Source: Escherichia coli
GTDB lineage: Bacteria > Pseudomonadota > Gammaproteobacteria > Enterobacterales > Enterobacteriaceae
Strand: one strand, 5' to 3'
DNA: 64,000 bases
NCBI RefSeq assembly: GCF_044324785.1
Contig: NZ_CP172127.1
This document shows, one piece after another, positions 36,302-38,025 of the stretch. Under the pieces are notes generated by a model. That model saw only the letters and a list, made by a program, of their open reading frames with translations. It was not told where the DNA came from and ran no database searches. Each line of letters begins with the position of its first letter. Position 1 is the first letter of the stretch. The position numbers and the translations under genes are program-made.

Positions 36302-36452
36302 TTGTCATCCCTCCTCAGGGACGTAATAAGTTGATCCATCAATTATCAATGCATAGAAAACATATTATGTTTCGCGTTGACGATTATGCGGCGTTATAGA
36401 GGAATGGTTCAATTATTCTTTCCCCTAAGTCCGATTGCGGACATATATAAAG

Positions 36453-37647
36453 GGAAGGTGCGAACAAGTTCCTGATATGAGATCATCATATTCATCCGGA
36501 GCGCATCCCAGAGGGACATCATGAGCCATCAACTCACCTTCGCCGATAGTGAATTCAGCACTAAGCGCCGTCAGACCCGAAAAGAGATTTTCCTCTCCCG
36601 CATGGAGCAGATTCTGCCATGGCAGAATATGACCGCTGTCATCGAGCCGTTTTATCCCAAGGCGGGCAATGGCCGACGGCCCTATCCGCTGGAGACCATG
36701 CTGCGTATTCACTGCATGCAGCATTGGTACAACCTGAGCGACGGTGCCATGGAAGATGCCCTGTACGAAATCGCCTCCATGCGCCTGTTTGCCCGATTAT
36801 CCCTGGATAGCGCCCTGCCGGATCGCACCACCATCATGAATTTCCGCCACCTGCTCGAGCAGCATCAACTGGCCCGTCAATTGTTCAAGACCATCAATCG
36901 CTGGCTGGCCGAAGCAGGCGTCATGATGACCCAAGGCACTTTGGTGGATGCCACCATCATTGAGGCACCCAGCTCTACCAAGAACAAAGAGCAGCAACGC
37001 GATCCGGAGATGCATCAGACCAAGAAAGGCAATCAGTGGCACTTTGGCATGAAGGCCCACATTGGTGTCGATGCCAAGAGTGGCCTGACCCACAGCCTAG
37101 TCACCACCGCGGCCAACGAGCATGACCTCAATCAGCTGGGTAATCTGCTTCATGGTGAGGAGCAATTTGTCTCAGCCGATGCCGGCTACCAAGGAGCGCC
37201 ACAGCGCGAGGAGCTGGCCGAGGTGGATGTGGACTGGCTGATCGCCGAGCGTCCCGGCAAGGTAAAAACCTTGAAGCAGCATCCGCGCAAGAACAAAACG
37301 GCCATCAACATCGAATACATGAAAGCCAGCATCCGTGCCAGGGTGGAGCACCCGTTTCGCATCATCAAGCGGCAGTTCGGCTTCGTGAAAGCCAGATACA
37401 AGGGGCTGCTGAAAAACGATAACCAACTGGCGATGTTATTCACCCTGGCCAACCTGTTTCGGGTGGACCAAATGATACGTCAGGGGAGAGATCTCAGTAA
37501 AAACCGGAAATAACGCCAGAAATGGTGGAAAAAATAGCCTAAATAGGCTGATTCGATGTGTTTGCGGGAAAAAAATCGGCCCAGATCCGCGAAATTTTAA
37601 TCAGCGAGTCTGCTTGGGAAGAAATGACCTGCTTATTCGCACCTTCC
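36453..37647 (+). mobile_element. IS5-family insertion sequence, complete (1195 bp) with terminal inverted repeats and 4-bp direct repeats
   Basis: Left end GGAAGGTGCGAACAAG at 36453-36468, right end CTTATTCGCACCTTCC at 37632-37647; AAAG at 36449-36452 and again at 37648-37651; encodes an InsH-like transposase. Confidence 0.93.
36521..37513 (+). CDS. insH: IS5 transposase InsH (variant with altered C-terminus)
   Basis: 330-aa [40 protein letters not shown]... matches my memory of K-12 InsH along its length except for a few substitutions and a different tail (…[18 protein letters not shown] versus the …QWERSH I recall). Confidence 0.93.
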
Positions 37648-38025
37648 AAAGCACGTGAACACACACACAGAAAGAAATAACAAAAACACAATATTTCAAT
37701 ACGTTAATGAAAGCGTTAATTTTAAAACATAGACCATGAAAATATAAAACAACCATAACAGACAAATAATGTATCAATAAGCAATGAACTTTAAGTTATT
37801 CACTTTTTGAAAACGTCACCAAATCCCCAAAAACAATAATCTATGGCTATAAATAAAAATTAAAAATATTTTCAATGAATATAAATTTATTGCTATTTCT
37901 ATTACAAAGATGTCCTGGCCTCTCTTTCATTCTCTTCTTGTCAACATCGCGACAACTTTCGTAAAACATCCCCACCCTGCTTCAGGTATACTATGCCCCT
38001 CGATTCCACAAACATCAGGCAGACC

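Follow-up and report, generated by a model that had tools for sequence, protein, structure and literature searches.

Our analysis indicates that, very probably, a copy of the insertion sequence ISKpn26 has transposed into the yaiT–hemB intergenic region of an E. coli-type chromosome at an off-consensus AAAG target, and that this insertion has no or only a small regulatory effect. The DNA analysed is a single stretch of 64,000 nucleotides, referred to here as the window, in which no Rfam family and no tRNA was found. The features at and around the insertion are collected in Table 1.

Table 1. Features of the element, its target site and its two neighbouring genes, with positions in the window.
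Feature	Position	Strand	Evidence
ISKpn26 (IS5 family, IS5 group), 1195-bp variant, whole element	36453..37647	+	1195/1195 nt identity to annotated copies
Left terminal inverted repeat (IRL), GGAAGGTGCGAACAAG	36453..36468	+	
Right terminal inverted repeat (IRR), reverse complement GGAAGGTGCGAATAAG, 15/16 against IRL	37632..37647	-	
Transposase ORF, 330 aa, directed towards hemB	36521..37513	+	NF033581, 367 bits
Left target-site duplication copy, AAAG	36449..36452	.	Empty site has a single AAAG
Right target-site duplication copy, AAAG	37648..37651	.	Empty site has a single AAAG
yaiT / EhaB-locus autotransporter, intact, 969 aa, ATG 151 nt from IRL	33392..36301	-	TIGR01414 barrel
Candidate yaiT core promoter, sigma-70-like, TTGAAC-18-CATAAT	36383..36412	-	Consensus scan, 9/12 match
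AT-rich (27% GC) central intergenic DNA, cut off from the yaiT promoter by the IS	37652..37950	.	
hemB (porphobilinogen synthase), 324 aa, ATG 378 nt from IRR	38026..39000	+	NF009923, 555 bits; orthologous-locus annotation

Insertion site and target-site duplication

The putative empty site was rebuilt and then searched against 5,426 complete E. coli genomes. In four retrieved E. coli loci, those of ETEC1738, 88-3493, EC42405 and AST85, the site is uninterrupted and reads ...GATTGCGGACATATATAAAGCACGTGAAC..., with one AAAG, and the empty allele of these four related genomes reads ...GGACATATATAAAGCACGTG..., with the insertion point lying between ...ATATATAAAG and CACGTG.... The occupied site differs from the empty one by exactly the IS plus 4 bp, with collinear flanks on both sides, and the bases adjoining AAAG (T/C on the left, G/C on the right) permit no alternative register. 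Since the four empty sites hold a single AAAG and no other register fits, the identical AAAG repeats on either side of the element, which had already been noticed in the original prediction, are a bona fide 4-bp target duplication, and the element arrived by true transposition, as was claimed there and as the empty-site comparison has now established.

The junction, probed with 150 nt of flank and 150 nt of the IS, was absent from all 5,426 complete E. coli genomes, so the genome from which the window derives lies outside that collection. Among the matches listed, it was also absent from 72 species-representative and at least 120 metagenome matches to the ISKpn26 left end. Identity between the window flanks and E. 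coli chromosomes is 97.5-99.1%, and the region from tgt to lacA is collinear with these. Because the junction is missing from the 5,426 genomes and the element is 100% identical to copies elsewhere, the insertion appears to be confined to one lineage among the genomes searched and is probably recent, in agreement with what had been proposed. The left-hand junction of the insertion is spanned by the 32-mer GCGGACATATATAAAGGGAAGGTGCGAACAAG.

Identity of the element

The element opens with GGAAGGTGCGAACAAG at 36453 and closes with CTTATTCGCACCTTCC at 37647, and its ends form a 16-bp inverted repeat that is 15/16 complementary, with one mismatch. The IS5-group terminal repeat motif GGAAGGTGCGAAYAAG has two matches in the 64-kb window, where 0.03 would be expected by chance, and these are the two ends of the element. 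The 330-aa ORF scored 367 bits, at a cutoff of 140, against the NCBIfam model NF033581 (transpos_IS5_4, 'IS5 family transposase') over residues 24-313. A single DDE transposase, inverted repeats of ~16 bp and a 4-bp target-site duplication place the element in the IS5 group, and the prediction of a 1195-bp IS5-family element with both terminal inverted repeats was thereby borne out.

Many E. coli chromosomes and plasmids carry 1195-nt copies with 100% identity to this element, and these are labelled 'IS5-like element ISKpn26 family transposase' in RefSeq, whereas IS5A of K-12 shares only 90.8% of its nucleotides. On the basis of these identities the element is assigned to ISKpn26, a named IS5-group sister of IS5, rather than to canonical IS5, an assignment (at least 95% nucleotide identity) that refers to the RefSeq/PGAP-annotated copies and the copy of plasmid p812A1-65K instead of the ISfinder reference. 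Nothing contradicts this identification. The earlier label of an IS5-family element thus stands, with the refinement that the element is not IS5 proper.

The ends, the 4-bp duplication and the gene layout are all the same as in ISKpn26, from which this copy differs in having 1195 instead of 1196 bp, in the end of its transposase and in its target, AAAG instead of CTAG/YTAR. An alignment with the 1196-bp ISKpn26 copy of p812A1-65K gave 1190 identical columns out of 1196, with five substitutions and a 1-nt deletion. The deleted nucleotide is the T of a TGG codon at about 37484, close to the 3' end of the transposase gene, and its loss replaces the C-terminus ...QWERSQ*, exchanging the last five residues for a nine-residue tail while the 330-aa frame stays open. 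PGAP annotates a 'frameshifted' pseudogene on every fetched copy identical to this element. The earlier description of the element as complete was therefore right as regards its intact ends and its length of 1195 bp, but has to be qualified for the transposase gene, which carries this deletion near its 3' end and is called 'frameshifted' by NCBI.

The deletion variant is a minority form: a 71-nt probe spanning the deletion was matched at at least 99% identity by 67 of the 2,732 records that have the region, and, among the matches listed, all complete copies surveyed from other species and metagenomes lacked the deletion. Copies 100% identical to our element are flanked by perfect duplications at five other loci, namely pagP (TTAG/TTAG), espL1 (CTAA/CTAA) and genes for a copper-binding protein (TTAG/TTAG), a fimbrial chaperone (TTAA/TTAA) and an oxidoreductase (TTAA/TTAA). 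Given these identical copies, the variant is evidently mobile, be it by its own enzyme or in trans.

The IS5 of K-12 (IS5A / insH1) resembles the element in its length of 1195 bp, its near-identical 16-bp inverted repeats and its 4-bp duplication, and the InsH transposase has 98.4% amino acid identity over 321 aa. The nucleotide divergence from IS5A is greatest near the ends, with 79% identity over the first 100 bp and 71% over the last ~100 bp, and the core of the IHF site in the 3' 'IB' activating region, TCAA in IS5, is TCGA here, with the A-tracts partly kept. Because of the divergent ends and the altered IHF core, the results on promoter activation by IS5 itself are not simply transferable to this element.

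Neighbouring genes and cis-acting features

The element was correctly placed between the divergent genes yaiT and hemB, 151 nt from the yaiT ATG (36301, minus strand) and 378 nt from the hemB ATG (38026). The identities proposed for the neighbours also stood, the 969-aa ORF being an autotransporter (TIGR01414) and the 324-aa ORF a porphobilinogen synthase. The gene at the yaiT locus is annotated as ehaB in many genomes. In K-12 yaiT occupies the same locus and is split by IS3, whereas it is intact in the window, with the same length as the annotated orthologue of ETEC1738. Its product has 65% overall identity to EhaB of O157:H7, the barrel being almost the same and the passenger domain divergent. 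EhaB is an autotransporter that binds the ECM and promotes biofilm formation (PMC7312957, Table 2).

In 5,362 of 5,424 E. coli records, among them K-12, both the 181 nt beside yaiT and the 211 nt beside hemB are conserved and the two stand next to each other; in about 62 of the 5,424 the yaiT- and hemB-proximal anchors are not joined. The middle part of the spacer is polymorphic; no more than 2 nt from the insertion point, the allele of K-12 already departs from that of the window. The candidate yaiT promoter sits in a segment of 151 bp conserved across E. coli, with its -35 hexamer 41 bp from the end of the IS, and the conserved hemB-proximal block begins about 200 bp from the insertion. The promoter-proximal blocks of both genes are thus intact and, given these distances, both core promoters, which are candidates from a weak consensus scan and from conservation, would survive the insertion.

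Promoter activation by IS5 through relief of silencing is described for bgl and flhDC, which are activated by IS1 as well (reviewed in PMC5493358 and PMC2753651). At glpFK, activation involves a bent, IHF-binding 177-bp segment of the IS5 3' end with phased A-tracts and an IHF site (TCAA...TT) whose TCAA core is required; it depends on phase and distance, the junction being situated 117-126 bp or so before +1 (PMC2753651). At fucAO, a host CRP site just outside the IRL, with its centre some 61.5 bp ahead of the point where transposase transcription starts, activates the transposase promoter, which gives a fusion promoter with read-through into fucAO (PMC11894529).

It has to be considered whether the IS changes the expression of yaiT in the manner of bgl and flhDC, by parting the core promoter of this EhaB-locus adhesin gene from AT-rich, probably H-NS-bound DNA or from an activator site; we regard this as rather unlikely. 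Its distance of 41 bp upstream of the candidate -35 is of the kind found for the IS5 and IS1 insertions that activate bgl and flhDC (PMC5493358, PMC2753651), and about 340 bp of DNA with 27% GC is moved away from yaiT, so that a bgl/flhDC-type geometry and AT-richness would be compatible with this site. A CRP-like site, CGTGAACACACACACA, with two mismatches (37654-37669), abuts the right AAAG copy and now stands ~1.2 kb from the candidate promoter, and an adhesin with the binding and biofilm activities of the intact orthologue EhaB could be a substrate for selection (PMC7312957, Table 2). However, the window has no excess of CRP-like matches over chance (201 observed and 217 expected), the promoter is a mere 9/12 match to the consensus, and no paper on regulation of yaiT or ehaB by H-NS was found in the literature. 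Moreover, the insertion occurs in one lineage only among the genomes searched, and hence nothing points to recurrence or selection. For yaiT, a modest effect is conceivable. A change in yaiT expression would be compatible with transposition of ISKpn26 to an off-consensus target, to which it would add a phenotype.

An effect on hemB, through a glpFK-type 3' end, a fucAO-type fusion promoter or read-through from the transposase gene, is quite improbable. The transposase gene and the 3' end of the IS both point towards hemB, no terminator-like site was found on the plus strand after the transposase stop, and the A-tracts of the 3' end are partly retained. Yet the IHF core is TCGA and not the required TCAA (PMC2753651), in a 3' end of which the last ~100 bp have only 71% identity to IS5, and 378 bp lie between the junction and the hemB ATG, with about 200 bp to the conserved block, compared with about 117-126 bp from +1 at glpFK (PMC2753651). 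Likewise, no CRP-like site (TGTGA-N6-TCACA with up to three mismatches) was found in the 151 bp outside the IRL (36302-36452), where the fucAO fusion promoter requires one (PMC11894529), and the consensus scan gave no promoter-like site across either IS junction. In addition, hemB serves a housekeeping function and has conserved upstream DNA of its own, and from the cis features an effect on it appears unlikely.

An altered expression of yaiT or hemB, which the original prediction had suggested, thus is a conjecture that the cis features examined do not appear to favour.

Target choice of the element

IS5 has a strong 5'-YTAR-3' motif across 220 reconstructed duplications (PMC5009759), and a 1,196-bp ISKpn26 of Klebsiella pneumoniae inserted in acrR at a CTAG target (PMC8023600). 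AAAG has two mismatches to YTAR. The preference of ISKpn26 was surveyed from exact matches to the 41 nt of its left end in 72 species-representative stretches, at least 120 metagenome stretches and eight individually fetched E. coli copies with 100% identity; after removal of duplicate sites and of two copies whose choice was biased, 185 distinct left flanks were obtained. Among the matches listed, 149 of these (80.5%) read YTAR, 32 had one mismatch and four (2%) had two, and the off-consensus fractions are upper bounds, because counts from left flanks take in rearranged copies and left flanks alone do not tell genuine off-consensus insertions apart from rearrangements that came afterwards.

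None of the 185 distinct left flanks, among the matches listed, reads AAAG, and the remark that this target is at odds with YTAR was justified. Position 2 of the left flanks is T in 97% and A in 1%, and position 1 is A in 3% (n=185, among the matches listed). The copies with perfect duplications, among the matches listed, gave YTAR in 19 of 20 cases and ATAG in the remaining one. Flanks of the TAAG, TAAA and CTTG/TTTG type make up a few per cent of the ISKpn26 left flanks, among the matches listed, and since such flanks occur, AAAG belongs to the margin of the observed spectrum rather than lying beyond it. The AAAG target is a real and rare departure, and it is the only unusual feature of the element. 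It lowers the typicality of the insertion but not the membership of the element in the IS5 group, as YTAR is a preference and not a strict requirement.

Two other candidates for an insertion at AAAG were considered and rejected. The p812A1-65K copy is flanked by ...TATATAAAG on the left and CTAT... on the right, and a prophage copy by ...ATATATTCAG and CTAA..., so that in neither case do the flanks form a matching duplication. The likeness of their left flanks to ours is a chance or AT-rich resemblance within rearranged regions.

Canonical sites were available nearby and remained unused (CTAA at 36425 and TTAA at 37704, which are 24 and 53 bp off). With canonical sites so close and AAAG unseen in the survey, a local DNA feature may have directed the choice. 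One could go further and propose a structure-directed IS5-type event instead of a random slip. The insertion would then lie where a readily melting AT-rich tract bound by H-NS ends, comparable with the hot spots associated with SIDD at bgl, flhDC and glpFK, and it would activate or adjust, in this lineage, the expression of a YaiT/EhaB-locus adhesin that is normally silent; we consider this extended proposal very unlikely.

That the altered transposase C-terminus of the 1195-bp variant relaxes the target choice and so led to AAAG is highly improbable. The variant is indeed distinct and a minority (67 of 2,732 records), and this copy is at an unusual target, but the eight other copies with 100% identity are flanked by YTAR or near-YTAR, five of them with perfect TTAG, CTAA or TTAA duplications, and this copy may have been moved by an enzyme acting in trans from another copy. 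The idea that the AAAG repeats are coincidental and the IS was brought by homologous recombination or by a rearrangement, an event that is common at IS copies (22 of 42 complete ISKpn26 copies have non-matching flanks, among the matches listed), is in effect refuted by the four empty sites, since two 4-mers would have to match by chance (1/256) and the empty-site sequence would also have to be restored precisely.

Discussion

The most probable course of events is that an ISKpn26 copy transposed between yaiT and hemB in an E. coli-type chromosome and that the transposase made the usual 4-bp staggered cut, at AAAG instead of the preferred YTAR; such a cut follows from the addition of exactly the IS and 4 bp to the empty-site sequence. 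We infer that the off-consensus target represents the rare tail of a strong but non-absolute preference, with no different mechanism at work. To place a target in the tail of a distribution is not to give a mechanism for its choice. The most plausible consequence, if there is any, would be an uncoupling of the yaiT promoter from ~340 bp of AT-rich DNA and from the weak CRP-like site at the junction, and hemB is most likely unaffected. The default reading would be that of a neutral, hitch-hiking insertion.

The insertion shares with the known cases of promoter activation by IS5 (bgl, flhDC, glpFK and fucAO) an IS5-group element, a divergent promoter region rich in AT and a position some tens of bp upstream of what may be a core promoter. 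In contrast to those cases, there is no recurrence here among the genomes searched, and the insertion is known from sequence alone. The targets also differ, with YTAR in those cases (CTAA at glpFK, PMC2753651; CTAG flanking the fucAO insertion, PMC11894529) and AAAG here, and the cis features specific to activation at glpFK and fucAO are either changed or missing.

The element itself is already known, and what we describe is an ordinary, probably recently acquired copy of ISKpn26, an insertion sequence common in enterobacteria. It provides a documented example of an off-consensus target of ISKpn26, and the insertion is usable as a lineage marker. For annotators it is relevant that the 1195-bp variant, which is labelled a 'frameshifted' pseudogene by pipelines, has evidently transposed repeatedly. 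If the expression of the adhesin were indeed changed by the insertion, this would be an extra case for the literature on promoter activation by IS5-type elements.

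ISKpn26 copies and their flanks

The ISKpn26 copy between yaiT and hemB (window 36453-37647) belongs to a 1195-bp variant whose transposase gene carries a 1-nt deletion near its 3' end and is annotated by PGAP as frameshifted. We found copies 100% identical to this variant at eight further E. coli loci (L080-L087), and identical copies flanked by perfect YTAR duplications occupied five separate loci across different strains. The deletion was carried by 67 of the 2,732 E. coli records that contain that region of the element. The 'pseudogene' label given to this variant is probably misleading.

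Among the matches listed, the 4-bp flanks differed between left and right in 22 of 42 complete ISKpn26 copies, and four copies with mismatched flanks had TTAG as the left and CTAA as the right flank. Such mismatched flanks are compatible with frequent recombination between copies after insertion.

In the survey of species-representative genomes, at least 35 contigs of the Shimwellia pseudoproteus DSM 3038 draft (L008-L042) matched the 41-nt left end of ISKpn26 exactly and most of them terminated in it, suggesting that the element has multiplied extensively in this species. Exact left ends were also present on contigs labelled as Streptomyces morookaense, Novosphingobium arvoryzae and metagenome-assembled genomes (MAGs) of Flavobacterium psychrophilum, Collinsella and Archangium gephyra (L006, L049-L053, L056 and L059). 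For these labels, a contaminated or mis-binned contig is more probable than a true host.

Variation in the surrounding DNA

The yaiT-hemB spacer is polymorphic among E. coli, as was seen by comparing window positions 36440-36452 and 37652-37850 with the K-12 locus (L211). The K-12 allele (...GGACATATATAATTTATGGAG...) departs from that of the window at most 2 nt from the insertion point of the IS, and the two alleles are alike again from approximately 180 bp upstream of the hemB ATG. The conserved anchors proximal to yaiT and to hemB were not joined in one place in about 62 of 5,424 E. coli records, and these records may carry other large insertions or deletions in the spacer; one of them, strain 4848, kept only the hemB part. 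A CRP-like sequence adjoins the right AAAG repeat (Table), and matches to TGTGA-N6-TCACA were not enriched within the window.

Two further segments set the window apart from ETEC1738, one of the four E. coli genomes used for the empty-site comparison. Approximately 170 bp in the ddlA-yaiZ interval (27838-28007), containing REP/BIME-like palindromes (GCCTGATGCGCTTTGCTTATCAGGCCTAC ... GGCGTTCGCGCCGCATCCGGCA), are missing in ETEC1738. About 1.9 kb (17090-19030) of a 762-aa ORF have no counterpart there, and between rdgC and ppnP that genome has only a truncated DUF2773 fragment. The 762-aa ORF had no family match in NCBIfam or PADLOC, and a 151-aa ORF lies directly downstream with a 4-nt overlap.

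Table. Positions and properties of the two ORFs and the CRP-like sequence in the window
Feature	Position	Strand	Properties
762-aa ORF	16749-19037	-	N-terminal signal-like sequence; C-terminal DUF2773 domain, residues 682-762
151-aa ORF	16297-16752	-	Match to NCBIfam NF049912 'SF0329 family protein'
CRP-like sequence CGTGAACACACACACA	37654-37669		Adjoins right AAAG repeat; 2 mismatches to TGTGA-N6-TCACA

Finally, we compared the autotransporter of the window (33392-36301) with EhaB of O157:H7 (L212, 388-3330). The barrel domain was nearly identical and the passenger domain strongly divergent, with an overall identity of 65% and many indels. This indicates allelic or mosaic variation in the surface-exposed part of the autotransporter.
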